From an uncultured Alistipes sp. (GTDB lineage: Bacteria > Bacteroidota > Bacteroidia > Bacteroidales > UBA932), in assembly GCA_900544195.1 (NCBI GenBank), contig UQUJ01000001.1, positions 45,342 to 109,341 on the forward strand: DNA of 64,000 nucleotides. The letters run 5' to 3'. Below, piece by piece: positions 768-31,293 of the stretch. Position 1 is the first letter of the stretch. Every line of letters starts with the position of its first letter. The position numbers and the translations under genes are program-made. The notes below the pieces were generated by a model, which was not told the DNA's origin, ran no database searches, and saw only the letters and a program-made list of their open reading frames with translations.

Positions 768-2267
768 ATGAAAAGAATCATGCTTACCGCAGTGCTGTCA
801 CTGCTTTGCGCCGCGATGCTTCCGGCGCAGACCAAGATTATGTCCCACAGGGGCTTCTACGCCCATTCGGGCTCTTTTGAAAACACATTGACGAGTCTTG
901 CCGGCGCTCAGAAACTCGGCGTTGAGAGCGTCGAACTGGATGTGCACCTTACGACTGACGACTCGCTCGTGATCATGCACGGCCCGATGATCCCTGGGAC
1001 GAAGTACAAGGATATTCAGAAACTTGACTACGCCACCGTCAAAAGATGCGTCCTCCCGAACGGCGACCATATTCCTTCATTAAGGGAATATTTCACCCAG
1101 GCGAAGCGCACTCCGGCGCTGAAGTTGTTCCTTGAACTCAAGTCGCATCCGACTCCGGCGAGGGAAACCCAGCTGGCGGAGAAGGTCATCGCTCTCTGTG
1201 ATGAAATGAATATGTACGATCAGATGTGCTTCATCTCTTTCAGCGAGCATCTCTGCGACGAGGTCCTGCGTCTGCATCCGGGTGCTGAGGTGATCCCGAT
1301 CACGTCCAGGAAGACATATTCAGTGAAAGAACTCAAGGACAGGGGCTACGCCGGTGTGTCCTATAATTATAATGTGGTGATCAACTCCGCCCACTATCTG
1401 GACGAGGTGCACGCGGCCGGACTTCAGACGGTCCTCTGGCCGGTGAACAGTTACGATCTTGCGGACTTCGCGATGAGGCACGGTGTCACCTACGTCTCCA
1501 CCGACCAGCCGCAGGGCATGAAACGCCTGATGGACTCCATCCGCGAGTTGAGGTGGAAACAGGAGAAGAAACTGATCTGCTTTGATCTGGACGGAACACT
1601 GACCCAGCACAAGACCCCGTTGACCGCAGCCAACAGGGCGGTTCTTGACACGCTGGCCAAGCGCTATGAAATCATAATGGCAGGAGGCGGGAACTGTGCG
1701 AGGATCTACAAGCAGATGGGTGAATATCCAATCACAATACTTGGTAACTATGGTATGGAGGAGAGCCGCATTGTCGACGGCAAGTTTAAGATGGTGATGG
1801 AAGAGAAGGCTCCGATAGACAGAAAGTTCTTCCAGAAGAACTGCGACTATCTCAGGAAGAAATATGGCTACACGGACTACAAGGGTGATCCTCTTGAGTT
1901 CCATGAGTCCGGTATGGTGACTTTTGGCCTTCTCGGAACCAAGGCGGACAAGGCGGACAAATTGTCGTTCGATCCGGATAAAATCCGCAGGCGTGCCATG
2001 TTCCCGGAGGTCAAGGAGATATTCAAGGATTATTCCGTGTTCATCGGCGGCACGACGTCGTTCGATATCACGCCTAAGAGGTATAACAAATTCGACGCTG
2101 TGCTGCGTTATGCCGCCGAGCATGGCTACTCGTTTGATCAGATTCTCTTTGTCGGTGATGATTTCGCGGATGGCGGCAACGATAGCCAGATTCGTCTCGG
2201 CGGCATGGACTACATAAGGATCGACGACTACACCCGCCTCCCGGAGAAGCTGGAATTCCTGTTTTAG
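768..2267 (+). CDS. Secreted fusion protein: glycerophosphodiester phosphodiesterase (GDPD) domain + HAD-superfamily (Cof-like) phosphatase domain
   Basis: N-terminal signal peptide; GDPD motif block HRGF...ENTL.S...A...G...VELDVHLT.DD..V..HG; HAD motif I (CFDLDGTLT) and motif IV (GDDFADGGND) in the C-terminal half. Confidence 0.7.
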   Translation: MKRIMLTAVLSLLCAAMLPAQTKIMSHRGFYAHSGSFENTLTSLAGAQKLGVESVELDVHLTTDDSLVIMHGPMIPGTKYKDIQKLDYATVKRCVLPNGDHIPSLREYFTQAKRTPALKLFLELKSHPTPARETQLAEKVIALCDEMNMYDQMCFISFSEHLCDEVLRLHPGAEVIPITSRKTYSVKELKDRGYAGVSYNYNVVINSAHYLDEVHAAGLQTVLWPVNSYDLADFAMRHGVTYVSTDQPQGMKRLMDSIRELRWKQEKKLICFDLDGTLTQHKTPLTAANRAVLDTLAKRYEIIMAGGGNCARIYKQMGEYPITILGNYGMEESRIVDGKFKMVMEEKAPIDRKFFQKNCDYLRKKYGYTDYKGDPLEFHESGMVTFGLLGTKADKADKLSFDPDKIRRRAMFPEVKEIFKDYSVFIGGTTSFDITPKRYNKFDAVLRYAAEHGYSFDQILFVGDDFADGGNDSQIRLGGMDYIRIDDYTRLPEKLEFLF

Positions 2268-2335
2268 GAAGCGGCGTGTCATCTGGTGCGCCTCCTGTTC
2301 AAAGCGTGGCGCTTAATGCTTTGATTATTAGCCAT

Positions 2336-2382
2336 AAAAACAAACTCGTGGTGCCGGATTCAGTACCACGAGTTCTTTTATT
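2336..2382. terminator. Bidirectional rho-independent terminator (A-run, 10-bp stem CTCGTGGTGC..GTACCACGAG, T-run)
   Basis: Perfect hairpin 2344-2373 flanked by AAAAACAA and TTCTTTTATT, lying between convergent genes. Near-identical to the hairpin at 18489-18518. Confidence 0.75.
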
Positions 2383-2420
2383 ATGTTGATAGTAAATCAG
2401 TTATTAGCCACGCTTCCGTG

Positions 2421-4430
2421 TCACTTGACCGTCTTAGGAGCCTGACCGGCCACCTTTGGCCAACCAGGGTTCTGGTAGATTACAGATGTCTCAAGGTCGG
2501 TCTTGTCGCCGGAGGCAGTCTGGCGGAACGCACTCTGCGGAAGCGGACTGAGATAGTGGGCAGGTGTGAAGTTGTAGCCTCCGAAGACTGAATTGTTCAC
2601 CTTGGAGATCTGGTAAGGCCTGATGTAAGGCCCGCTGACCACCTTGTCAGACATATTCCCCGTTCCTCCGTCCACATCGACAATCACAAGGTCTTCCCCG
2701 CTTTGGCTCAAAAGCTTGCCTTCGTAGGAAGAACCCCAGTAGAGCATTCCCTCAATCTGGTAATCCTTCACCTGGTCGAGAGCCCTCCAGCGCTTGAGGT
2801 CGGCCATGCGCATCCCTTCGCCTATCAGCTCGTTCCTGCGCTCGCGGCGGATGTTGTAGAGTGTGGCGTCCACCATCCTTCCCTGCGAGTACGCCCCGAA
2901 GTCTCCCATCGCCTCCTTTGCCACATCTGTGGCGGCGATGGTGACGTTGTAGTCAGGGTTGACCTTCGCCCTCGTCCTGAGCGCGCGCCAGTACCTGTCC
3001 GCCGTGGCGTCGATGTTTCCGTTCTTCTCGTAGCAGGCCTCGATGTAGTTCAGCAGGGCCTCAGCCCCCCTGAACACCACGCTGGCGGTGGTTCCCTTCT
3101 GATGCTGGTTCTCCATGTAACTGTTGTAGTGCTTTCCCTTCTTCAGGGCGAACCCGGTCACATTGCGGGTCTCGTTGTTCCCTTTGACAATCCACGTCGG
3201 ATCGAAGCGGTTGGCGGATCCGTCGGCGTTGTAGACATCGGCGTCCCCGTCCTTCTTTGTGAATATCCTGATTCTGGAATCCCTGCCCGTAAGGGTGGCC
3301 TTCACGCTCTCCTTCTCCCAGTCAGGGTTGTAGCCCGAGCCCGAAGCATAGACCGGAAGTCCGTTCTCCATCAGGAACGAGTTGACCAGACCACGTGTCC
3401 AGCCTGTGCCGCCTCCGTTGCGCATCAGCTGCATCTGGATGTTGTGCGTCACACCCTGTGCCTCGTTGTATTCCCTCCACATCAGCACTTCAGGGTAGTT
3501 CTCAAGGCTGTAGTCGCAGAACATCACGTAGTACGGATTCAGCGTCTTGAACGACACGTCCATCCCCTCTTCGGTGTCGGTGTTCTCCGTCAGTTTCCCG
3601 ACAATCTCTTCCCCGACAGCCTTGGCCGAGGCCATCGCCTCTGTCAGGAAATAACTGATTTCGGAGTCGATGTTCAGACCGCTGGCATCCTCGGTCTTGC
3701 CCGGCCAGCCCTGACCGCCAGGGACGAATGCGGTGCCTTTGTGGTGCTTGAGCCAGGTTCCTTCGTAAAGAGCCACTCGCGAGCGGAGCAGATGGGCCAC
3801 GGATTTGCCGACCCTTGTCTTACCCGCCGGAGAAGTCTCCAGGAGCATCTGTGCTGCCTTGTCCAGGTCGGACAGGATGAAACGCGCCACCTTGTGTCTC
3901 GGCTGCCTTTTGGACGCCTCCACCAGAACTTCCTCCTGATCAGGAAGGGCGGTCTCGACAATCGGACAGTCGCCTATGTTCTGAAGCATGTTGAAATAGG
4001 CGTAGGCGCGGATCAGGTAGATTTCCCCGATGTAATGCCGGATGTTGGCGGCGGAACCCTGGATCTCTCCCGCCTCGTGTTTAGGCAGCACCTGCTCCAG
4101 AAAATAGTTGCAGTGCCTTATCTGAGAGAAGTTCCACACTCCCGAGGTGGCCGACACCCTCCACTCTCCGGGAACCCAGAAAGAGGAGTAATCAACGGCG
4201 GCCTGGTTATCCGTCCCGTTGTCGCTGCCGAAGGTGCTTATTCCATAGGAACCAGGTCCGATGGAAGTGAATGCGTACAGGTTGATTGAATATGCCGCCA
4301 GATCCGCCTCTGCCTTGAAATAGGACGAAGGAGTCACGGAACTCTGGGGCTGCTTGTCCAGAAAATCATCGCACCCGGCGACACTGAAAAGAGCTGCCAG
4401 AGACATGAATATGTAGATAATCTTTTTCAT
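2421..4430 (-). CDS. susD: SusD/RagB-family nutrient-binding outer-membrane lipoprotein
   Basis: Lipoprotein signal (..SVAGCDDFLDKQP), 669 aa, TPR-like SusD N-terminus (YFLRAYAYFN-type segment), immediately downstream of a SusC gene. Confidence 0.9.
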   Translation of the reverse strand: MKKIIYIFMSLAALFSVAGCDDFLDKQPQSSVTPSSYFKAEADLAAYSINLYAFTSIGPGSYGISTFGSDNGTDNQAAVDYSSFWVPGEWRVSATSGVWNFSQIRHCNYFLEQVLPKHEAGEIQGSAANIRHYIGEIYLIRAYAYFNMLQNIGDCPIVETALPDQEEVLVEASKRQPRHKVARFILSDLDKAAQMLLETSPAGKTRVGKSVAHLLRSRVALYEGTWLKHHKGTAFVPGGQGWPGKTEDASGLNIDSEISYFLTEAMASAKAVGEEIVGKLTENTDTEEGMDVSFKTLNPYYVMFCDYSLENYPEVLMWREYNEAQGVTHNIQMQLMRNGGGTGWTRGLVNSFLMENGLPVYASGSGYNPDWEKESVKATLTGRDSRIRIFTKKDGDADVYNADGSANRFDPTWIVKGNNETRNVTGFALKKGKHYNSYMENQHQKGTTASVVFRGAEALLNYIEACYEKNGNIDATADRYWRALRTRAKVNPDYNVTIAATDVAKEAMGDFGAYSQGRMVDATLYNIRRERRNELIGEGMRMADLKRWRALDQVKDYQIEGMLYWGSSYEGKLLSQSGEDLVIVDVDGGTGNMSDKVVSGPYIRPYQISKVNNSVFGGYNFTPAHYLSPLPQSAFRQTASGDKTDLETSVIYQNPGWPKVAGQAPKTVK

Positions 4431-20252: not shown

Positions 20253-23200
20253 TTAGAAGTTGAGTTTAAGGTTCAGACCGAAGCTGCGTGAGGTAGGGAG
20301 GGCGAACATGTCGATGCCCTGCCAGCCGTTGCCTGTACCTGCTGAGACATCAGGGTCGCAAGGTGCGTCCTTGTAGAAGAAGAACAGGTTGCGGCCGATG
20401 ATGGATGCTGTCACGTTCTTGCCGTTGCCGAGGAGGTTACGGAATGTGTAGCCGAAGCTGAGCTCGCGCAGACGGACGTTGGTGGCGCTGTAGACGTAGT
20501 TCTCGTTGGCGTAAGGAGAGTTGAAGTTGCTGGCTCCCGTGGTCTCGTACCAAGCCCTTGGATCGAAGGAGACTCCGTCAACGGTGATGGAGCCGGCGTC
20601 GCGGGCCTCGCCTGACCTCTGTGACACACCCCAGCCGTCCAGCGTGGCCTCGGTCATGGAGATGACCTTGCCGCCGAATCTCGCGTCGATGAGCATCGAG
20701 AGATTGAAGTTCTTGTAGCGGAATGAGTTACTCCAGCCGGCGTAAACCTTGGAGTTCATGTTGCCGACATGCTTGAGCTGGTCGTTGTTGTCGTCGCCGA
20801 GGATCGGCTGTCCGGCATCGTTCTTCTTGATCTTGCCGCTCTCGTCCCTGAGGATCTGGCGTACATAGAGGTCACCGTAGGAACCACCTTCCTTGAGGAT
20901 GATCTTGGCGCCTCCGAAGTTGGAGAGTGTAAGGCCGTTAGGAAGCTCGTCCACGAGTTCTACGATCTTGTTGTTGTTGTAGGAGAAGTTCACTCCTGTC
21001 TCCCAGCTGAAGTCGTTGCTGAACTGCTCGTACCAGCTGGCGGTCATCTCGATACCCTGGTTCTCCACATTACCGGCGTTCACATAGCGGTTGCGCAGAC
21101 CGGACTCGTAAGGAGAGGCTACGGAGAAGAACTGGTTCTTGGTGTTGGTCTTGTACCAGGTGGCGGAGACGTTGAGCCTGTTGTTGAAGAAGGCTCCGTC
21201 GAAACCGGCCTCGATGGAGTGGGTCATCTCAGGCTTGAGGGTTCTGAAAGGAGCGCTGTCCGGAGCGGAGATCGATCCCTGTGAGCCAAGGCTGTAGAGC
21301 AGGTTGGTCATGTAGACAGGGACATCGTTACCCACGATGGAGTAGCTTGCGCGGAACTTCACGAGGTCCACGGCAGGGCCGAGGTCGGCGAACTTGTTCA
21401 GAAGGAAGCTGGCTCCCACTGAAGGATAGAAGAATGACACATTGTCGGTGAAGGCAAGAGCCGATGACCAGTCGTTACGGGCGGTGACATCGATGAAGAG
21501 GCCTTCCTTGTAGCCGAACTGCGCGGTAGCGAACACGGCGTTAAGACGCTTCTCGGTGTTCCAGTGGCCACCCTTTCCGACAGACGACATATTCCCATAA
21601 TAGTTGTTAGGGGTGAATATGTTAGGGTAGTAGACGTTACCGTTGCCAGGGGCTGTGAACTGTGTTCCCTCAGCCCAGAGATCCACGTTTCCGGTCTTGC
21701 TGTGGGTGAAGCTGGAGCCGGTGGTCACGGAGAGTGAGAAGGTGTCGTTCCAGTTGTGGTTGTAGCCGACGAGCACATCGCCGTACATCTGGTCGCTGAA
21801 GTAGCGGTTGTCCTTCATTCTGCCCATAGGGTAGAGGTCACCGGTGCTGGAGGCGTAGGCGTTATGCACAAAGTGCTCCTCGCCCCTCTCGTAGCGGAGA
21901 CGGCCCTGTACGTAGAGATCCTTGATGATGTCCCATCTGACGCTGCCGCCGAACTCGTAGCGGTTGCGGTCAACGACCGGCTTCTGGCGGTTGAGCACCC
22001 AGTAAGGGTTGCTGTACTGCTGTTGCTTCGTGTTGGTCCAGTTCTGGACGTAGCAGCTGCGTGAGGCGTCATAGACCTCGTAGTTGTTCTTGTAGTGATC
22101 CCAGTCCTCGCCTCTCGGGAAGAGGTAGGCGCCGGTCAGAGGGTTCCAGAGGAATCCCGATGCGGACTGGTTCTCGATGTGCTGGTTGGTGAGCTTCGCG
22201 CTTGCCTCTATCTTGATGTTGTCGAGGACGGTGAAGTTGACCTTGGTGTTGAAGTTGTGGCTTCTGTACTCATTCTCAGGAGTCATGCCCTCTGAGTAGA
22301 CATTGCCGTAGGAGAAGTAGGCTCCGAAAGAGTCGTTTCCGCCGGACACGGCGAATGTGTTGTTGGTCGTGAAACCTGTGCGGAAGAACTTCTTGAGATA
22401 GTTCGGCGCCTTTGAGGAGAGCTTGCTGCCCCAGCTGTAGGTGCCGTTGTCCGACATCCCGTAGTTGTTCTGGAACTTAGGAAGCACCATAGGGCTTTCT
22501 GCTGTCGTGTTGCTGGACACGGTGACGTTCACCTTGCCTGCTGCCGCTGACTTTGTCGTGATCATGATCGCGCCGTTGGCGGCCACGGCACCGTAAAGCG
22601 CTGCGGCTGACGCACCTTTAAGGAGGGTGATGGACTTGATGTCGTCAGGGTTGATCGTGGACATCACATCGCCGCCGTCCCTCTCGCCACCATAGTTGGA
22701 GGCCACCTGGGATGAGGTGATGTTCTGCATCACAGGCACACCGTCCACAACAATGAGAGGCTGGTTGCTTCCGTTGATGGACTTGTTGCCTCGGAAGAGG
22801 ATCTTGGATGATCCGCCGGCTCCTGTCGAGTTAGGAGTGATGACCAGACCGGCGCTCTTTCCCTGGAGGGAGTTGATCATGTTGATGCTCTTGATGTCGT
22901 TGACATCCTTGCCGCCGACTGTCTCGGCAGCGTAGGTAAGGCTTTCCGACTGGCGGACCATACCCATGGCCGTCACCACGACTCCCTTGAGAGCTGTGGC
23001 TTCCTCGAGGATGACGATGTCGAGTGTGGCCTGGCCGTTCCAGACGATCTCCTTGGTCTCGTATCCGATGATGGAGACGGTGATCACATCGTTGGCCTTA
23101 AGATTGCCGAGTCTGAATTTACCGTCGATGTCTGTGGTCTCACCGGTGGTTCCACCTTTGACAAAAACGGCGGCGCCTACGACTGGGCCGTTGGCGTCCT

Positions 23201-23330
23201 TGACTGTACCGCTTACGGATCCTGCCCTGTCCTGGGCCGCCGCCGCGGCTGAGAACGACACGAACAGAACGATGGCTGCCACTACGGTCGCCATTCCTCT
23301 GAGTGTCGAAGATTTGATTCTGTTAAACAT
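20253..23330 (-). CDS. susC: SusC/RagA-family TonB-dependent transporter (start set at MFNRIKSS; the longer ORF to 23393 runs into a repeat element)
   Basis: Signal peptide, CarbopepD_reg N-domain (VSGTVKDANGPVVGAAVFVKGGTTGETTDIDGKF), plug block (LIVVDGVP, ALYGAVAANGAIMITTK), barrel ending KLNF. ATG at 23330-23328 verified. Confidence 0.9.
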   Translation of the reverse strand: MFNRIKSSTLRGMATVVAAIVLFVSFSAAAAAQDRAGSVSGTVKDANGPVVGAAVFVKGGTTGETTDIDGKFRLGNLKANDVITVSIIGYETKEIVWNGQATLDIVILEEATALKGVVVTAMGMVRQSESLTYAAETVGGKDVNDIKSINMINSLQGKSAGLVITPNSTGAGGSSKILFRGNKSINGSNQPLIVVDGVPVMQNITSSQVASNYGGERDGGDVMSTINPDDIKSITLLKGASAAALYGAVAANGAIMITTKSAAAGKVNVTVSSNTTAESPMVLPKFQNNYGMSDNGTYSWGSKLSSKAPNYLKKFFRTGFTTNNTFAVSGGNDSFGAYFSYGNVYSEGMTPENEYRSHNFNTKVNFTVLDNIKIEASAKLTNQHIENQSASGFLWNPLTGAYLFPRGEDWDHYKNNYEVYDASRSCYVQNWTNTKQQQYSNPYWVLNRQKPVVDRNRYEFGGSVRWDIIKDLYVQGRLRYERGEEHFVHNAYASSTGDLYPMGRMKDNRYFSDQMYGDVLVGYNHNWNDTFSLSVTTGSSFTHSKTGNVDLWAEGTQFTAPGNGNVYYPNIFTPNNYYGNMSSVGKGGHWNTEKRLNAVFATAQFGYKEGLFIDVTARNDWSSALAFTDNVSFFYPSVGASFLLNKFADLGPAVDLVKFRASYSIVGNDVPVYMTNLLYSLGSQGSISAPDSAPFRTLKPEMTHSIEAGFDGAFFNNRLNVSATWYKTNTKNQFFSVASPYESGLRNRYVNAGNVENQGIEMTASWYEQFSNDFSWETGVNFSYNNNKIVELVDELPNGLTLSNFGGAKIILKEGGSYGDLYVRQILRDESGKIKKNDAGQPILGDDNNDQLKHVGNMNSKVYAGWSNSFRYKNFNLSMLIDARFGGKVISMTEATLDGWGVSQRSGEARDAGSITVDGVSFDPRAWYETTGASNFNSPYANENYVYSATNVRLRELSFGYTFRNLLGNGKNVTASIIGRNLFFFYKDAPCDPDVSAGTGNGWQGIDMFALPTSRSFGLNLKLNF

Positions 23331-23363
23331 AATAATAAGATATTGGTAGTGTTTTCTATAGTT

Positions 23364-23462
23364 GAGTCCACTTGAAAAAGTACCATTCGCCACTTTTTAC
23401 CCCCGTTGGAAGTACCTGTGTGGCACATATTTTTCAAAAAAAAGACTTTTTCAAGTGGGCTC
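23364..23462. repeat. Palindromic MITE-like element P (99 bp, termini GAGTCCACTTGAAAAAGT / ACTTTTTCAAGTGG.CTC), complete copy
   Basis: Exact reverse complement of 43257-43355; the right half also appears at 638-698. Confidence 0.85.
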
Positions 23463-23936
23463 ATAGTTTTTATTTTTCATCCGGCGAAAAAGAGGAGCCG
23501 GCTCATTATGTCGTTTTTTTGTGTTTAGTATATTTATTCATTATGCAAAAATATGTGTCATTTTGTAAAAAACAAGAGATTCTCTTTAAAAATGACATTT
23601 TTATGAACCGTTTGTTTTAAAAATGGTAGCGAATCGCCTTGGACCCATATTTCGTGAAGGTTGTTCCCATAGATTGAATTATTCTAAAATAACGATTCCC
23701 TGACAGGCTAAACCGATAAAGTTGAAAAAACTCTTTGCAGTTAGAAATTGATTTCATAACTTGCGCCATCAAAATTTTTCAAGGATGTTTTCGGAAGCCC
23801 ACACATATCGACAGCAGCAGTTCCAGCAGGGATTTCAGAGCCAGAATGTTCAGGTCCTGAACGATTTCGTGTGTGCCGGTCTTCCAGCCTGACGGCATAT
23901 TCATTATGGAAAAAAGGATATTATGATTTAATATTG

Positions 23937-23973
23937 AAGGCTGGTTCCTCGTGGATCAGCCTTCTTTCTTTTT
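23937..23973 (+). terminator. Rho-independent terminator-like hairpin (GAAGGCTG-N12-CAGCCTTC followed by TTTCTTTTT) with no annotated upstream plus-strand gene
   Basis: 8-bp GC-rich stem followed by a T-run on the plus strand, ~40 bp downstream of a 110-bp GC-rich island (23785-23898) in an otherwise AT-rich intergenic region. Confidence 0.45.
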
Positions 23974-24030
23974 GAATCTGCTTAGTAAGCGTAAAAAAAT
24001 AAGTTGAACTAAATTTTGTGTCAGATTTAT

Positions 24031-24100
24031 GAGGATAGATTTCTTTTGGAAGAAGGAGTGTGCCGGTGGCACATGACTGATGAGAAAAGAAATATAGACC
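24031..24100. promoter_or_regulatory. 70-bp dispersed element containing palindrome TGTGCC-GGT-GGCACA (24059-24073), 109 bp upstream of glnA
   Basis: About 88% identical to 52644-52713, which is upstream of another gene; internal 15-bp inverted repeat read directly. Confidence 0.5.
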
Positions 24101-24208
24101 ATAAAGATATACAAATTGTTCAAGTTATTTTTTAATGATTACTTAGAGAATTTGATTACACAATATATAGTTTAAGGAAATACAACACCTTTAACAAATA
24201 GACAAATT

Positions 24209-26389
24209 ATGAGCATTGACAGATTTGATCTGGTGAAGGAATCCTTCGAGAAGAAGGCTGTTCCGGCTGAACGCCCTGAGGGCAAGACCTCCGACTATTA
24301 CGGAGAACTGGTCTTTGACCGTCCCAAGATGCACAAGTACTTGGACGTCAAGACTCTGAATGCGCTGCTTGACTGCATCGACAACGGCAAGTCCCTTGAC
24401 AGGGAGACCGCTGATGGAGTCGCAAAGGGTATGAAAGAGTGGGCTATGGAGCATCACGTGACCCACGTGACCCACTGGTTCCAGCCTCTGACAGAGGGCA
24501 CCGCCGAGAAGCATGATTCGCTGATCGACTATGACGGCAAAGGAGGAGTCATCGAGACATTCGACGGAAAATCTCTCGCGCAGCAGGAGCCTGACGCTTC
24601 TTCCTTCCCTAATGGAGGAATCCGCGCCACATTCGAGGCCAGAGGCTACACGGCCTGGGATCCGACTTCTCCGGTGTTCATCATGGATGACACCCTCTGC
24701 ATCCCGACCGTCTTCATCTCCTACACCGGTGAGGCCTTGGACTACAAAACCCCTCTCAAAAAGGCCCTCAAGGCCGTTTCTGATGCGGCCACTCCTATCT
24801 GCCGCCTCTTCGACAAGTCTGTCACTAAGGTATATTCCTACCTTGGATGGGAGCAGGAATATTTCCTTGTCGATGAATCCCTCTATGCCGCGAGGCCTGA
24901 CCTTATGATCACCGGCCGCACCCTGATGGGACACAGCTCATCCAAGAACCAACAGCTGGACGACCACTATTTCGGTGCCATTCCTTCAAGAGTCGCTGAG
25001 TTTATGCGTGATCTTGAGATTGCCGGTCACCGTCTTGGGATTCCGCTCAAGACCAGGCACAACGAGGTGGCTCCCAACCAGTTCGAGCTCGCTCCGATCT
25101 TCGGTGAGACCAACCTCGCCAACGACCAGAACCAGCTTGTGATGAACCTGATGAACAAGATCGCGCGCAAGCACGGTTTCGTGGTTCTGCTTCACGAAAA
25201 GCCTTTCGCAGGAGTGAACGGATCCGGCAAGCACAACAACTGGTCGCTCGGAACCGACACCGGCACAATGCTTCTGGCTCCGGGCAAGGATGCCAAGGGC
25301 AACCTCCAGTTCGTCACATTCTTCGTGAATGTGCTGGCTGCCGTTCAGAAGCACAACGCTTTGCTGAAGGCCTCCATAGCCACTGCCACCAACGCCCATC
25401 GTCTCGGCGCCAACGAGGCTCCGCCGGCAATCGTGTCCGCTTTCCTTGGCAGGACGATGACAGATGTGCTTCACAAACTGCTTGAGGTTCCGTCCGACAC
25501 TCCGATCGAGATCGCCGGGAAGAAGGGCAAAAGCGTTGGCCTTGTGGAGATTCCGGAGATATTCGTGGACAACACCGACCGCAACAGAACCTCTCCGTTC
25601 GCTTTCACGGGCAACCGCTTCGAGTTCCGCGCCGTGGGTTCGCTGGCCAATTGCGCCGGTGCGATGACCACACTGAACGCCGCTGTGGCTGAGCAACTTA
25701 TCTCGTTCAAGAAAAGCCTGGACAAGGAACTGGCAGCAGGCAAGGCTATGAATGTGGCCATCATGGACACCTTGAAGCCGATCATCGCGTCCATAATAGA
25801 TGTGGTCTGCTTCGACGGCAACGGCTACACCGATGAGTGGAAGGCCGAGGCGAAGAGGCGCGGGCTGGATGTCGAGACCAGCGTCCCGGAGATGATTAAG
25901 GTCTTCACGGCTCCTGAATCTGTGAATATGTTCAAGGAGACGGGGGTATATTCAGAAAAAGAGCTTCAGGCCCGCAATGAGGTGAAGTGGGAGACCTACA
26001 GCAAGATGATCCAGATCGAGTCGCGCGTGATGGCGAGAATGGCGATCAACCACATTATCCCGGCTGCCCTTGACTACAAGTCCAAGTTGCTGAAGGAGGT
26101 GGCGTTGAGCAAGAATGTCTTCGGCGGCACGGACGAGTGCAAGGAGGAGATCTACCTCATAAAGAGCATCTCGAAATACGTTGACCAGATCCGCGAGAAG
26201 GCGACCGCTATGGTCGAGGCGCGCAAGAAGGCGAATGTCCTTGAGGATGAATATGCCAAAGCAGTGGCCTACCACGAGATAGCCGAGAGCTTCTCCGCCC
26301 TCCGCCGTCCGATCGACAAGCTTGAGGAGATCGTGGACAACCGCACCTGGCCTCTCCCGAAGTACCGCGAGCTGCTGTTCATCAGCTAG
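24209..26389 (+). CDS. glnA: Glutamine synthetase type III (GSIII)
   Basis: 726 aa, the size typical of Bacteroides-type GSIII; conserved GS catalytic blocks (..NGSGKHNNWS.., ..EFR..GS..N..). Confidence 0.85.
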   Translation: MSIDRFDLVKESFEKKAVPAERPEGKTSDYYGELVFDRPKMHKYLDVKTLNALLDCIDNGKSLDRETADGVAKGMKEWAMEHHVTHVTHWFQPLTEGTAEKHDSLIDYDGKGGVIETFDGKSLAQQEPDASSFPNGGIRATFEARGYTAWDPTSPVFIMDDTLCIPTVFISYTGEALDYKTPLKKALKAVSDAATPICRLFDKSVTKVYSYLGWEQEYFLVDESLYAARPDLMITGRTLMGHSSSKNQQLDDHYFGAIPSRVAEFMRDLEIAGHRLGIPLKTRHNEVAPNQFELAPIFGETNLANDQNQLVMNLMNKIARKHGFVVLLHEKPFAGVNGSGKHNNWSLGTDTGTMLLAPGKDAKGNLQFVTFFVNVLAAVQKHNALLKASIATATNAHRLGANEAPPAIVSAFLGRTMTDVLHKLLEVPSDTPIEIAGKKGKSVGLVEIPEIFVDNTDRNRTSPFAFTGNRFEFRAVGSLANCAGAMTTLNAAVAEQLISFKKSLDKELAAGKAMNVAIMDTLKPIIASIIDVVCFDGNGYTDEWKAEAKRRGLDVETSVPEMIKVFTAPESVNMFKETGVYSEKELQARNEVKWETYSKMIQIESRVMARMAINHIIPAALDYKSKLLKEVALSKNVFGGTDECKEEIYLIKSISKYVDQIREKATAMVEARKKANVLEDEYAKAVAYHEIAESFSALRRPIDKLEEIVDNRTWPLPKYRELLFIS

Positions 26390-26418
26390 TTCCCGCATCG
26401 GTCACTGAGCAGCCTTTC

Positions 26419-26440
26419 GGTCACTGAGCTTGTCGAAGTG
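26419..26440. repeat. 22-nt dispersed motif GGTCRCTGARCYTGTYGAAGYG (copy 1 of 4)
   Basis: Same motif at 35751-35772, 44981-45002 and 48196-48217, all intergenic. Confidence 0.7.
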
Positions 26441-26469
26441 ACTATGTAATCATCAAAGCACTTTTACAA

Positions 26470-26539
26470 AGCGGCAAAGGCGTTCAAAAATAGAAAATTC
26501 CAGAATTTTGCACGTTACCAAAATTCTGGAATTTTTATT
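26470..26539. repeat. Long perfect hairpin (30-bp stem) with loop GCACGTTACC, 3' of glnA
   Basis: Stem GCGTTCAAAAATAGAAAATTCCAGAATTTT pairs with AAAATTCTGGAATTTTTATTTTCTGAACGC. It has the same architecture and loop as 45086-45158, but the stem sequence differs. Confidence 0.75.
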
Positions 26540-26613
26540 TTCTGAACGCGGTGTTTCTTTTTGAGTGGATTCCTTAAAACTCTATTATCTATGACTTGTG
26601 TCTGTGTCAGCCT

Positions 26614-26847
26614 CTATGCCTTGTGCCAGCTGGCGGAAGATTCTTGGATGATCTCATCAACCAGAAAGGCGTCACTCATATTCTGCAGACCGTTTCTTAA
26701 GTCGTTGAGATTGCAGTAGGTCTTTGAATTATAGAAAACAGCCATCGCCTTGTCTTCGGAAATGTCCAGCCTTTTGGCTAAAAGGGAGATGACTCTGGCA
26801 TATTTCATTTGGAGCAGAGTCTCATTTATTAAAGGATTTCCGTTCAT
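26614..26847 (-). CDS. Small protein, DUF3791-like (third gene of overlapping triad)
   Basis: 77 aa; start overlaps the stop of the upstream gene by 4 nt; paralogous in size and helical character to 27338-27565. Confidence 0.55.
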   Translation of the reverse strand: MNGNPLINETLLQMKYARVISLLAKRLDISEDKAMAVFYNSKTYCNLNDLRNGLQNMSDAFLVDEIIQESSASWHKA

Positions 26848-27341
26848 TGTTCTTCCTCCTTTATTTCACGCGCCTCAACAAATGTCAAGTGATTATCGAT
26901 AATGTTCTGGTTAAGAACGCAGATCTGATTGTTCGGCTTTTCATAAATCAATCTTTGAAGAGCCTCGTTTTCGGAAATCAAGCCAGAGGAGTATAACTCG
27001 ATTGTGTTGAATATCCTGTCGTTTGCTATTCCGCCTTCCACAATGTCAAACTGTCTCCAGTCGGAGCCTCCTTTCCTGTTGGAAATCACAAAATTCAGCC
27101 ATTCGGCGTTGTATTCATCGAAATGGAGGTATTGGTAGTCTCCGTTTGCAATTGCGGATGAATCCAGTTCATAGATATTGAGATATTTCTGTTTGCCTTG
27201 ATTCAAAGGTCTTGAGGCCCAGGATATTGCTTGAGCCTCCAAAGTTGTCAGATAGAATCCTTTGCCGAAGTCCAGATGATTCCGTCCGATATTGGCGAGC
27301 GGCTTGTCGACTATTGATGTGGAGCCGTGAAATACTTTCAT
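26844..27341 (-). CDS. DUF3990-like protein (possible H-Y-E type ADP-ribosyltransferase-fold domain)
   Basis: 165 aa; ordered motifs VFHGS ... GKGFYLTT ... QFDIVEGG resemble the H-G-S / aromatic-Y / catalytic-E pattern of ART folds; flanked by two small paralogous genes with 4-nt overlaps. Confidence 0.5.
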   Translation of the reverse strand: MKVFHGSTSIVDKPLANIGRNHLDFGKGFYLTTLEAQAISWASRPLNQGKQKYLNIYELDSSAIANGDYQYLHFDEYNAEWLNFVISNRKGGSDWRQFDIVEGGIANDRIFNTIELYSSGLISENEALQRLIYEKPNNQICVLNQNIIDNHLTFVEAREIKEEEQ

Positions 27342-27565
27342 AGTTTTATGCTGAAGTTATGGCTGGAGATATAAGTCTGGATCTCATCCAAGATGTAATC
27401 CTTGCTTTGTGTATGCAGAGAATCGTAACTTGGATAAAGGAATCCGGAGATTGCTCCTATGTCATTCAGTTTATTGAATATTACAGAACCTGACACTCCA
27501 AGGCGATCCGCAAGATTCTCAATGCAGAACACCACAAATTCTGTTGCCCGTTCTTTTTGGCTCAT
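27338..27565 (-). CDS. Small protein, DUF3791-like (first gene of overlapping triad)
   Basis: 75 aa; ATGA overlap with the downstream gene. Confidence 0.55.
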   Translation of the reverse strand: MSQKERATEFVVFCIENLADRLGVSGSVIFNKLNDIGAISGFLYPSYDSLHTQSKDYILDEIQTYISSHNFSIKL

Positions 27566-27969
27566 ATTCTTTCAATTTCCGCAAACTTAATCATTATTAT
27601 GGAAATTAACAATATGATTCATTTCACTCTTCCCTGTGTTCCTCCGGGACTGTCGAATCTCTGAAGTGCGAATCTTCAGCTTAAGACTATTTGAGGCTGT
27701 GCGCTATGAATGCTTGATAATGAATGCTTTAAGGCTTTGCCTTTGGCTTGATTCAACTGAAGGCGAATGCCTATTCCATTGACTATTAGTGTTTTGAATC
27801 GCACTGGCTGATATTGAGGCGGTGGCGGATAAGTGCTTGAATATCAATAAGAAAAACTTTGTCCTGGTGTCGAATATCGCACTAGGACAATGCTTAATAT
27901 GTTTATAATTAATGCTTTAAGCGCCACGGGGTTTGGTGCCCTGCCCACCCACTCTTACTTTACATTTGC

Positions 27970-28296
27970 CTAGATGTCCTTCTTCACGGCTGAGACATTC
28001 TGATCCTTGCCGAACATAGGACTGTATTTTCCTCTCGGGATGTCATTGAATATGTACGCATTGGCTTTTCTCGCGGCAACGATGTGGTCTGTGGTGGCGG
28101 TGACAATGGCGGATGCCGCAAGATCTATCAAGGCTCCTAAGACTCCACCTCCGCTGCTATTTTGCGACAGATCCAGATGAAGATCACAGGTCCTGTCAAA
28201 GATGATTTCGTTTGTCTTTGCCGACTTGATAAAATACCGGATTTTGGTGTCGATCCCGAAACCGCTCTTCGTCCATTTGTCTATCTGTGAGAACAC
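27970..28296 (-). CDS. Hypothetical small protein
   Basis: 108-aa ORF 58 bp downstream of cls on the same strand; Gly/Ala-rich segment SGGGVLGALIDLAASAIVTA; no family recognised. Confidence 0.35.
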   Translation of the reverse strand: MFSQIDKWTKSGFGIDTKIRYFIKSAKTNEIIFDRTCDLHLDLSQNSSGGGVLGALIDLAASAIVTATTDHIVAARKANAYIFNDIPRGKYSPMFGKDQNVSAVKKDI

Positions 28297-28353
28297 TACC
28301 GCATCGGCATGTGGTCTGAAGGCAGGCTGATTCGGCAGGAGGCAACGGAAGTC

Positions 28354-29964
28354 CTACAGCAGCGGAGCGAACAACCTCATGATACTTTCGATGATGTGGG
28401 AGTACCATGGGCGGGCACTCCATTCCTCGATGGTCAGCTCGTGGCATTGACGGAGGTCGTACATGAATATTCCTTTGTTCATCAGGGCGGTCTGCTCGTC
28501 GTAGATGTAGGAGTTGACCTCGTAGTTGATGGCGAAGCTGCGGAAGTCCAGATTGGCGGAACCTATGCTGGAGAGGTAGTCGTCGCTGACGAATGTCTTG
28601 GCATGGATGAACTCTCCTTTGCGCAGGAATATTCTTACGCCGGCTTGCAGGGCCTCTTCGTAATAGGCTCTGTTGGCCGGGCGCATGAGGATGTTGTCGG
28701 CCACTTCCGGGAGCATCAGACGGACATCGACTCCACAGAGGGCGGCTGTCTTGAGGGCGTCCATGACAGGCTCGGTCGGCACGAAGTACGGGGTTTGGAG
28801 ATAGATGTACTTTTTGGCGTGCTGCAAGGCCCATTCGTAGCTCAGCTGGAGGATCGGGAGCGGCAGGTCCGGTTCGTCCGGGACTATCTGGATAAGTTTG
28901 TTCCTGAGCGTCGGGTGGGTGGCATGGAAATCGATCTCTTGTTCTGTTGTCAAATCGTTTTCTCTGGTCGCTGAGCTTATCTTTCCAGTCGCTGGACTTC
29001 CCTTTCCGGTCTCTGGGCTTGTCGAAGCGACATTGTTCAGGATTAGAGACCCTTGTGAGGTCACTTCGGCAGGCTCAGTGGCCGGGGCAACTTTCTTCGC
29101 CATCGGGTAGAACTCAGTCATCGCCTTGTCAATCGTCCCGCCACCCGTCAGCCAGGAGTCCAAAAACGTGTACTGGAGCACGGCCACGGCGTCGCCCGTG
29201 ATGCGCATGTGCGTGTCCCTCCACAGACGGAAATAGTGGTCGTTTATATTCATGCCTCCAGTGTAGCCTATCTTTCCGTCAATCACGACTATCTTCCTGT
29301 GGTTCCGGTAATTGAGTTTCGTGGCCAGATCCAGGACGTGCATTCTTGGGTTGGTGAACTTCACAACCTCGACCCCGGCTTTCCTCATGTCATTGTAGTA
29401 GGCCGCCGCGATCGGGAAATTCGCGATGTTCTCGTACAGGAATCTGACTTTGACCCCTTCCCGGGCCTTCTGCATAAGAAGCCGTTTGATCGCCTTGCTG
29501 CCCTTGTCGTTGCCGAAATGGAAATATTCAATGTGGATTGACTCCTTGGCCGCCAGTATGTCCTCGCGCAGCAGGTCGAACTTCCGCTGCCCACTGGTGA
29601 TGACCTCGATGTCATTGCCGGATGTGACAGAAGGGTAGTGTTCCGCGCCCAAAAGTCTGGCAAGCGGGCGGAATTCCTCACGGATTTTCTCCTCGTTGTC
29701 GTGCCCGAAAAGGATTCTGTTCAGCTCAGGAGTCGTGCCGGCCTCGAAGATGTCCCTGTACCTCTGGTGCCGGCGGTAGAAGATCCAGTGATGTCGGTAG
29801 TTGATACCGAACATCAGGTAGAGAGCCAGTCCGACGACCGGAAGCACGGCTATGATCAGCAGCCATGCGAATTTCCTTCCCGAATCCCCCTTGTCAACCA
29901 GAATGACCGTGAAGACACTGAGGATCAAGAGAACATAAAGCCCTGTGAGAAACCACTGCAACAT
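28354..29964 (-). CDS. cls: Cardiolipin synthase (phospholipase D superfamily, two HKD motifs)
   Basis: Two N-terminal TM helices; HKD motif 1 (HRKIVVIDGKIGYTGGMNI) and motif 2 (HAKTFVSDDYLSSIGSANLD); a long low-complexity linker lies between the PLD domains. Confidence 0.85.
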   Translation of the reverse strand: MLQWFLTGLYVLLILSVFTVILVDKGDSGRKFAWLLIIAVLPVVGLALYLMFGINYRHHWIFYRRHQRYRDIFEAGTTPELNRILFGHDNEEKIREEFRPLARLLGAEHYPSVTSGNDIEVITSGQRKFDLLREDILAAKESIHIEYFHFGNDKGSKAIKRLLMQKAREGVKVRFLYENIANFPIAAAYYNDMRKAGVEVVKFTNPRMHVLDLATKLNYRNHRKIVVIDGKIGYTGGMNINDHYFRLWRDTHMRITGDAVAVLQYTFLDSWLTGGGTIDKAMTEFYPMAKKVAPATEPAEVTSQGSLILNNVASTSPETGKGSPATGKISSATRENDLTTEQEIDFHATHPTLRNKLIQIVPDEPDLPLPILQLSYEWALQHAKKYIYLQTPYFVPTEPVMDALKTAALCGVDVRLMLPEVADNILMRPANRAYYEEALQAGVRIFLRKGEFIHAKTFVSDDYLSSIGSANLDFRSFAINYEVNSYIYDEQTALMNKGIFMYDLRQCHELTIEEWSARPWYSHIIESIMRLFAPLL

Positions 29965-29970
29965 ATTCAG

Positions 29971-31293
29971 TTAAACTAATTTTCCGATGAGAGTGGCGGA
30001 GGTGCAAGACAGCACCTTGACATCCACATAGTCTCCGGCCTTGTGGCCACAGCCCGGGAACACGCACATCTTGTTGCTGCCCGAACGGCCGCATAACTCA
30101 TCCGGATTCTTCTTTGACGGCCCTTCCACGAGAACCTTGAAAGTCTTGCCGATGTCATTCTGGTTGCTTTTCAGGCTCAGTTCGCTCTGCAGGGCGATGA
30201 TCTCGTTCAACCTTCTGGTCTTGACATCGAGCGGGACATCGTCCGGATAGTGTCTTGCCGCGAGCGTCCCCGGCCTTTCGGAGTAGTAGAACATGTAGGC
30301 ATAGTCGAACCCGACCTTGCGGAACAGTTCAAGTGTCTGCTGATGATCCTCTTCTGTCTCGGAGCAGAATCCGGCGATCACGTCCGTGGTGATCCCGCAA
30401 CCTGGCAGCACTTCACGGATCTTCGCCACACGCTCAAGGTACCATTCGGCGGTGTAGCGTCTCCTCATCTTCTCCAGAAGCCTGTCGCTGCCGGACTGGA
30501 CCGGCAGATGAATATGATTGCAGATGTTGTCGTACCTTGCCATCGTCCCGATCAGCTCATCGCTGATGTCCTTGGGATGATTGGTGGCGAAACGGACTCT
30601 GAGCCCGGGACTGATCCGTGCGACCATCTCCAACAGTTTCGGAAAGTCACATCCTTCCCCCTCGGCCGGTTTCCAGTTGTAGGAATCCACGTTCTGGCCG
30701 AGCAGGGTGACTTCCTTGTACCCTTTGCCGAAAACATCACGGGCTTCATTCACAATTGTTTGCGGATCCCTGCTCCTTTCAGCTCCCCTTGTGTAAGGCA
30801 CGACACAGTACGAGCAGACGTTGTTGCATCCTCTCATGATCGAGATGAAGGCTGAGACTCCGTTCCTGTCGGTCCTGACCGGAACGATGTCCGCGTAGGT
30901 CTCCTCGTGGGAGAGCATCACGTTGATCTGTGGCTTGTCCGGTGCTATGTCCTTCAGAAGCGCCGGAAGCGTCCTGTAGGAGTCCGGACCGGCCACAAGA
31001 TCCACCTTGTGGGTGTCCAGCAACTTGTCCTTCAGCCTCTCGGCCATGCAGCCGACGATCCCCACGACCACGCCTGACCTCTTTTCCTTCTGTTTGTGGA
31101 ACACCTCTATGCGTCCCCATATTCTTTGCTCGGCATTGTCTCTGACGGAACATGTGTTGGCGAGGATGACATCGGCCTCGTCCATTGATTCTGTGCGTTC
31201 GTAGCCCTCTTTCCCGAGTATCGAGAAAATCACCTCCGAGTCGCCGACGTTCATCTGGCAACCGTAGGTCTCTATGTAAATCTTCTTGCTCAT
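29971..31293 (-). CDS. miaB: tRNA-2-methylthio-N6-dimethylallyladenosine synthase (radical SAM methylthiotransferase)
   Basis: MSKKIYIETYGCQMN start (MTTase N-domain), CxxxCxxC radical-SAM cluster (CNNVCSYC), C-terminal TRAM domain. Start placed at the MSKK Met. Confidence 0.88.
   Translation of the reverse strand: MSKKIYIETYGCQMNVGDSEVIFSILGKEGYERTESMDEADVILANTCSVRDNAEQRIWGRIEVFHKQKEKRSGVVVGIVGCMAERLKDKLLDTHKVDLVAGPDSYRTLPALLKDIAPDKPQINVMLSHEETYADIVPVRTDRNGVSAFISIMRGCNNVCSYCVVPYTRGAERSRDPQTIVNEARDVFGKGYKEVTLLGQNVDSYNWKPAEGEGCDFPKLLEMVARISPGLRVRFATNHPKDISDELIGTMARYDNICNHIHLPVQSGSDRLLEKMRRRYTAEWYLERVAKIREVLPGCGITTDVIAGFCSETEEDHQQTLELFRKVGFDYAYMFYYSERPGTLAARHYPDDVPLDVKTRRLNEIIALQSELSLKSNQNDIGKTFKVLVEGPSKKNPDELCGRSGSNKMCVFPGCGHKAGDYVDVKVLSCTSATLIGKLV

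Follow-up and report, generated by a model that had tools for sequence, protein, structure and literature searches.

We analysed a 64,000-nucleotide stretch of DNA (hereafter the window) from an uncultured Alistipes sp. (GenBank assembly GCA_900544195.1, contig UQUJ01000001.1, positions 45,342 to 109,341). The window contains a cassette of three minus-strand genes, A, B and C, located between a gene for a type III glutamine synthetase (glnA), which is convergent with C, and a gene for a phospholipase D (PLD)-type cardiolipin synthase (cls) (Table 1). Protein B belongs to the DUF3990 family, and proteins A and C are predicted DUF3791 paralogues. An earlier reading of the same sequence (the original prediction) had reported three genes overlapping by 4 nucleotides, and its gene lengths and coordinates are exact. 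An ATGA stop/start overlap joins A to B and B to C. The closest genomic match is Alistipes sp. CAG:514, whose B protein is 98% identical.

Table 1. The cassette and other features of the window discussed in the text (window coordinates)
Feature	Coordinates	Strand	Description
Gene A	27338-27565	minus	75 aa; DUF3791, small helical protein; putative trans-acting antitoxin or regulator
Gene B	26844-27341	minus	165 aa; DUF3990; predicted ADP-ribosyltransferase (ART) fold; putative NAD+-using toxin
Gene C	26614-26847	minus	77 aa; divergent DUF3791 paralogue of A; putative cis partner of B
glnA	24209-26389	plus	Type III glutamine synthetase
cls	28354-29964	minus	PLD-type cardiolipin synthase
Promoter-like site, Bacteroidetes-type	27582-27613	minus	-7 box TAAGTTTG at 27582-27589; TTG at 27610-27612, 20 nt upstream
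Imperfect inverted repeat	27584-27624		11-nt arms, 82% complementary; overlaps the -7 box; possible operator (weak evidence)
Terminator-like hairpin, bidirectional	26480-26549		31-nt arms, T-runs on both sides; between C and convergent glnA
Shine-Dalgarno-like AAGGAGG	26860-26875	minus	Within the 3' end of B, 8-14 nt ahead of the C start codon
Low-GC island	26450-28100		Cassette and degraded neighbouring gene; 40-46% GC in the composition profile, against 54-60% in glnA and cls
Variable spot	27614-28353		Stretch between cls and cassette
108-aa open reading frame (ORF)	27970-28296	minus	C-terminal remnant of a GNA1162-like lipoprotein gene
Low-GC stretch upstream of glnA	23300-24200		About 900 nt at 30-41% GC; no Rfam match

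The analysis shows the gene structure, homology, the ART fold, residue conservation, obligatory co-occurrence, fusions, mobility and a promoter motif of the cassette's own. The three genes are real genes under purifying selection, with ratios of nonsynonymous to synonymous substitution rates (dN/dS) of 0.09-0.36 for each of A, B and C, and 0.11-0.17 for A, against four relatives at 85-92% DNA identity.

The cassette is already catalogued as the computational defence candidate PDC-M13 and is not a new discovery; the original prediction had called it undescribed. PADLOC models for PDC-M13 match A (9e-23), B (2e-52) and C (4.6e-18), and the three genes are adjacent. PDC-M13 membership is defined here by these hidden Markov model matches together with gene contiguity. 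The PDC set comprises 145 computational candidates taken from genes embedded in BREX, DISARM and type I restriction-modification (RM) systems, an approach termed “guilt-by-embedding” (10.1101/2024.01.29.577857). PDC-M13 itself was defined from two cassettes, one in A-B-C and one in B-C-A order, the second being CAS_00120 (Payne et al., 10.1101/2024.01.29.577857). The Alistipes locus has the same composition and is an ordinary member, but it is not embedded in a defence system. In the literature we found no functional study of DUF3990 (PF13151), DUF3791, PDC-M13 or the toxin of the homologue-bearing plasmid pBF9343.

Our preferred explanation, to which we assign a probability of about 55%, is that the cassette encodes a tripartite toxin-antitoxin-like module with an NAD+-using, ART-fold B protein, and that the module functions in abortive infection and/or mobile-element stabilisation.

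Protein A matches DUF3791 (Pfam accession PF12668) at 1.1e-19 (70.6 bits, cutoff 25) and contains an LHTQS motif that is nearly invariant among its homologues. Repeated weak helix-turn-helix matches fall on residues 15-38. The C protein of the window has no match to PF12668 at E <= 1, whereas 58 of 70 C-family members do match (best 1.4e-7), and one C homologue is annotated as DUF3791 by NCBI. An hhalign comparison of the A-family and C-family profiles gave a probability of 96% (E 1e-8, 56 columns). From this alignment and the C-family DUF3791 matches we conclude that A and C are probably old paralogues. The original prediction had proposed that the outer proteins are DUF3791-like paralogues, and this holds for A directly and for C at the level of profiles. 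Pairwise BLASTP of A against C returned no alignment, and the relationship is seen by profile methods only. In a model of a B-C fusion protein, the C domain is predicted to form four helices; Foldseek found no match for this fusion model in PDB at E <= 0.001. A search for DUF3791 homologues recovered stand-alone small proteins only, without informative domain fusions.

Fold and predicted active site of protein B

Protein B matches DUF3990 (Pfam accession PF13151) at 1.3e-45 (155.3 bits, cutoff 32.2), in agreement with the family assignment of the original prediction. The match spans residues 1-152 and the model has 152 positions. DUF3990 is a member of the Pfam ART clan (PMC7955679). An AlphaFold2 model of B, built with 43 homologues, has a predicted local distance difference test (pLDDT) score of 93.4 and a predicted template modelling (pTM) score of 0.87. 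The model contains the split beta-sheet of the ART fold, as the original prediction had anticipated. The nearest solved folds are the RES-domain toxins ParT, Res, MbcT, VPA0770 and NatT. Profile searches of B, A and C against PDB sequences found no solved homologue, with weak helix-turn-helix-like segments for A only. NCBIfam and PHROGs gave nothing significant for A, B or C. A search of BFVD gave two significant viral matches, followed by weaker ones to ART domains of phage polyvalent proteins.

The original prediction had also proposed an H-Y-E signature, the catalytic signature of one class of ART enzymes, on the basis of the motifs VFHGS, GKGFYLTT and QFDIVEGG. All three motifs are present in B. 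An hhalign comparison with the catalytic domain of PARP1, at a probability of only 7.6%, places VFHGS on LWHGS (H862), FGKGFYLT on FGKGIYFA (Y896) and NIYELD on NMYELK (Y907). The PARP1 sequence used for this comparison was verified against PDB. We computed residue conservation over 385 homologues and found H5, Y30, D24, F25, G26, R89, D99, G103, D108 and Q139 to be 97-100% conserved; Y57 falls in the same range, position 57 being Y or F. H5, Y30 and Y57 lie on modelled strands 2-7, 29-32 and 53-59, respectively. E102 is present in the B protein of the window, on modelled strand 100-102, and is conserved in 90% of close relatives and 100% of B-C fusions; D99 is invariant in the family. The B protein of the window thus appears to carry a complete H-Y-E signature, and the third position varies in the family, as it does in PARPs. 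The histidine and tyrosine assignments of the original prediction therefore stand, in register with PARP1, whereas the glutamate is not a family-wide feature.

Proteins A, B and C are all acidic, with isoelectric points (pI) of about 5. The acidity of B argues weakly against a nucleic acid as its target. DarT, a nucleic-acid-modifying ART-fold toxin, is basic.

The structural neighbours of B raise a possible, though somewhat unlikely, alternative in which B is an NAD+ glycohydrolase or phosphorylase that arrests the cell through NAD+ depletion and transfers no ADP-ribose. Several RES-domain toxins, including MbcT and Xre-RES toxins, act by depleting NAD+, and RES-domain toxins are the closest solved folds to B. 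The variable third catalytic position and the acidity of B, in which it differs from DarT, are also consistent with NAD+ degradation. Against this, B carries the H-Y-Y signature of transferases and not R-E-S, and it has no match to the Pfam RES model at E <= 1. Genes for ADP-ribosylglycohydrolases (ARHs), which adjoin the cassette in some genomes (see below), would also point to an ADP-ribosyl group that is attached covalently and open to removal.

We compared the cassette with characterized systems built around ART-fold toxins. Assignment of B to the RES-domain toxins was rejected, given the lack of a Pfam RES match, a first-strand residue that is His and not Arg, and the lack of R-E-S. ParST, MbcTA and Xre-RES resemble the cassette in fold and operon logic only. 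Their toxins are R-E-S proteins paired with one Xre-HTH or DUF2384 antitoxin, whereas B is H-Y-Y(-E/D) and is accompanied by two paralogous DUF3791 partners. DarTG is a mobile, anti-phage module with an ART-fold toxin of the H-Y-E class, and the cassette would share its mobility, its association with defence and this class of toxin. DarTG was rejected as an assignment, as the cassette lacks the DarT (DUF4433) toxin and macrodomain antitoxin that define it. CmdTAC consists of three co-transcribed components around an ART toxin, and the cassette also has three components around an ART-fold protein. The two differ in that the accessory proteins of the cassette are paralogues of each other and that searches of Pfam, NCBIfam and PADLOC identified no SecB-like chaperone.

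DUF3990 also occurs as the C-terminal toxin tip of type VI secretion system (T6SS) Rhs proteins, including Serratia Rhs5-CT and Enterobacter RhsA (PMC4524185, PMC10763514). These tips contain the same Pfam domain as B and are delivered as antibacterial toxins. Unlike B, they are fused to Rhs/PAAR delivery modules and are encoded with unrelated immunity genes. The Rhs tips, together with a weak Imm43 match for B (E 0.013), would be compatible with an inter-bacterial effector guarded by two immunity proteins. We consider this highly improbable for the cassette: B is a 165-residue protein that consists of the DUF3990 domain alone and starts directly with the first ART strand, the neighbouring genes include no T6SS genes, and C, which would be the immunity partner, is in many cases part of one polypeptide with the toxin. 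Of the three layouts named in the original prediction (toxin-antitoxin, abortive infection and effector-immunity), effector-immunity ranks last, given that B lacks a delivery domain. A secreted effector-immunity pair was accordingly rejected as an assignment, B having no signal peptide and no PAAR, Rhs, MIX or other delivery domain.

Linkage of the three families

We collected 80 genomic loci, from Bacteroidales, Lachnospiraceae, Treponema and other lineages, and 42 loci from the viral collection IMG/VR. Homologues of A lie beside B in all 80 genomic loci and homologues of C in 79, in A-B-C order, and both junctions are most often the 4-nucleotide overlap. A and C homologues also flank B in approximately 33 of the 42 viral loci, where B identity is as low as 25%. 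Of the 122 loci taken together, only a few lack the triad. Six of these 42 loci (L095-L097 and L099-L101) encode the same three families in the permuted order B-C-A. As expected of a type II toxin-antitoxin system, the genes appear to be obligatorily linked and co-transcribed.

Gene fusions extend this linkage to the protein level. In more than 120 clusters (90% identity), C is joined to the C-terminus of B in one polypeptide; one of these clusters has 1293 member sequences. A separate A is kept upstream. On plasmid pBF9343 (NC_006873.1, 3555-4480; locus L081), a 149-aa C-A fusion precedes B. The two kinds of fusion suggest that A, B and C act while bound to one another, as one complex.

At two loci B is disrupted and A and C are intact. 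In L024 (6001-6492) B is interrupted by an in-frame stop, and in L093 (4001-4477) two ORFs take its place. Loss of B with retention of A and C is what one would expect of a protein that burdens its host cell.

Some genomes contain more than one copy. A Treponema contig (L032) has two, at 291-1068 and 2084-3024, about 1.4 kb apart, and only B and C were detected in the first. In the metagenome-assembled genome (MAG) RGIG10234, copies lie on two contigs (L054 and L075).

We identified ARH genes beside the cassette in two settings. In a Prevotella island, an ARH gene (Pfam accession PF03747) adjoins the cassette in the layout secDF / ARH <-> A-B-C / tRNA synthetase (L015, L017, L018, L023 and L024; 4828-5619 or equivalent), with no further genes between secDF and the tRNA synthetase gene. 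Since these five loci are almost the same, we count them as a single lineage. An independent ARH gene lies downstream of C in a spirochaete MAG (L031, 7111-7956). ARH is absent from the window and from the great majority of loci. Where present, the neighbouring ARH is a possible reversal enzyme and hints at a removable ADP-ribosyl product. This arrangement resembles Tre1-Tri1 and DraT-DraG, in which an ART is paired with a reversing ARH, and differs from them in that the window and most loci have no such gene.

A DraT/DraG-like role, with B a regulated, non-lethal and reversible ADP-ribosylating enzyme and A and C its specificity or regulatory subunits, is consistent with the ARH genes of the two lineages. 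It would also fit the very common B-C fusions, which are unusual for a labile antitoxin, and the similar constraint on three proteins that are all acidic. We nevertheless judge it quite improbable. The same domain is used as a killing toxin by Rhs proteins, B is pseudogenised while A and C are retained, selfish toxin modules typically show such a patchy, mobile and multi-copy distribution, and most loci have no ARH with which to reverse a modification.

Mobility, defence association and predicted function

We found homologues of the cassette in 87 plasmid records, of which 28 are conjugative. The pBF9343 plasmid family, which is found in many Bacteroides and Phocaeicola species, carries the cassette beside a zeta-toxin pair. 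Viral collections contain few members, with 5 phage records and 42 of the 2.9 million IMG/VR contigs. Clustering of the family at 50% identity yields 5157 clusters. In the rumen, 3324 PDC-M13 loci were reported in 6530 genomes, placing it among the most frequent predicted systems (PMC13356809). The plasmid homologues and the dip in GC content at the locus (Table 1) indicate that the cassette is horizontally acquired and mobile.

Immediate neighbours in the 80 genomic loci are heterogeneous and mostly housekeeping or unrelated genes. A minority are defence-like, including ABC/OLD-type ATPases, PDC-S01 and Mokosh. The survey of gene neighbourhoods for defence islands that the original prediction called for thus yields a few defence-like genes among neighbours that mostly have no such association. 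In L083 and L084 (255-968), a distant DUF3990 protein (P0140) adjoins a type II RM pair. P0140 has a 77-aa N-terminal extension that is unlike A and C, and two small ORFs of no recognised family lie behind it.

Plasmid carriage makes a module serving mainly addiction worth weighing. Here the cassette would stabilise plasmids and integrative elements through post-segregational killing, by the same mechanism as in our preferred explanation, and would play no part in defence against phage. Such a module is supported by the 87 plasmid records, among them the conjugative pBF9343 family with its adjacent zeta-toxin pair, and also by the sparseness of defence genes around most chromosomal copies, the paired copies on the Treponema contig and the two copies in one MAG. 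Yet the window copy is chromosomal, with housekeeping genes on either side. The stretch searched contained no integrase and no element ends, and ARAGORN found no tRNA gene in window positions 15000-40000, so nothing would be left there to stabilise. The PDC-M13 cassettes were moreover found embedded in RM, BREX and DISARM systems, and one relative adjoins a type II RM pair. On balance we consider a role restricted to addiction unlikely.

The toxin-antitoxin and abortive-infection reading rests on the PDC-M13 matches, plasmid carriage and the use of DUF3990 as an Rhs tip. These observations fit the layout suggested in the original prediction, and the function assigned to it is one that we infer. 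We propose that B is a cytoplasmic ART enzyme that binds NAD+ through an H-Y(-Y) site, like PARPs and diphtheria toxin, and that would either ADP-ribosylate an essential cellular or phage target or destroy NAD+. A and C would be paralogous four-helix DUF3791 proteins whose ratio to B is fixed by translational coupling, and an A-B-C complex would keep B inactive. C may be a stoichiometric, cis-type partner, in many cases joined covalently to B, and A a separate, trans-acting neutraliser and possibly a transcriptional autoregulator. If A and C were lost or displaced, possibly on phage infection or when the carrying element is lost, B would be released and the cell arrested. The outcome would be abortive-infection defence and/or stabilisation of a mobile element.

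Several observations weigh against this proposal. First, its link to phage defence comes from PDC-M13, a computational candidate. Recognisable defence genes make up only approximately 10-15% of immediate neighbours in the 80 loci, the neighbours of the cassette in the window are housekeeping genes, and the association with ARH is confined to two independent lineages. Second, E102 is present in only 50% of 50%-identity representatives (E in 72 and I in 37 of 143, with M and T also found), and the B protein of pBF9343 has Met at this position. Since E102 varies across the family, the catalytic acid may instead be the invariant D99; given the replacements, some B-family members may be inactive. 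Third, DNA binding by A is doubtful because A is acidic and the palindromes upstream of its gene are weak. The placement of the C domain on B is uncertain in the fusion model (pTM 0.67). Finally, several parts of the proposal are our inference: that B is toxic and uses NAD+, that A and C inhibit it and share this work between them, and what the trigger and the target would be.

Each of the ART-fold toxins DarT, ParT, MbcT and CmdT revealed a new target and a new route to stopping phage or stabilising mobile DNA. More speculatively, the DUF3990-DUF3791 cassettes of gut Bacteroidota and Firmicutes may make up a new family of switches for abortive infection or addiction that act by ADP-ribosylation. 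Two paralogous four-helix proteins would have split the antitoxin task, C as a cis-acting lid or sensor that was repeatedly fused to the enzyme and A as a trans-acting neutraliser. The acidic H-Y-Y enzyme would ADP-ribosylate a protein not so far recognised as a target of this modification, with reversal by ARH in some lineages. We advance this only tentatively. The family abounds in gut and rumen bacteria, and the Alistipes locus, as an ordinary member, is a good experimental lead. Fusions and order permutations suggest a concrete design of one enzyme and two paralogous partners in one complex, and the candidate key residues of B are H5, Y30, Y57, D99 and E102. If it acts in defence or addiction, the cassette would be relevant to phage therapy and to the plasmid ecology of Bacteroidota.

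Expression signals and flanking DNA

The original prediction described the cassette as isolated between glnA and cls behind its own promoter region. Both flanking genes are confirmed, and a promoter-like site lies upstream of A (Table 1); its -7 box ends 17 nucleotides short of the ATG. The TANNTTTG motif occurs at 26 sites in the 64 kb. The same promoter motif is found within 100 nucleotides upstream of A in 60 of the 80 genomic loci, where approximately 2 would be expected by chance. Homology to two close relatives (L001 and L003) starts about 50 nucleotides upstream of A, and these 50 nucleotides contain the -7 box and TTG. The cassette therefore has its own putative promoter, identified by its match to the consensus only. 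A sigma-70 promoter scan was uninformative for this Bacteroidetes genome. Palindromes upstream of A have arms that are only slightly longer across loci than in shuffled sequence (4.4 and 3.3 nucleotides, respectively). A Shine-Dalgarno-like sequence precedes C, and none was seen before B. Shine-Dalgarno sequences are not commonly used in Bacteroidota.

Rfam searches found no match in window positions 22000-30000, which include the low-GC stretch upstream of glnA. In each of the four close relatives L001-L004, the glnA side of the cassette is conserved and the cls side is different. As each has different DNA between cls and the cassette, we regard this stretch as a variable spot. The DNA found there includes KduI-type genes, a major facilitator superfamily (MFS) transporter and a lipoprotein operon. 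At the position of the 108-aa remnant, L002 has a full 221-aa GNA1162-like lipoprotein gene together with a DUF4810 gene.

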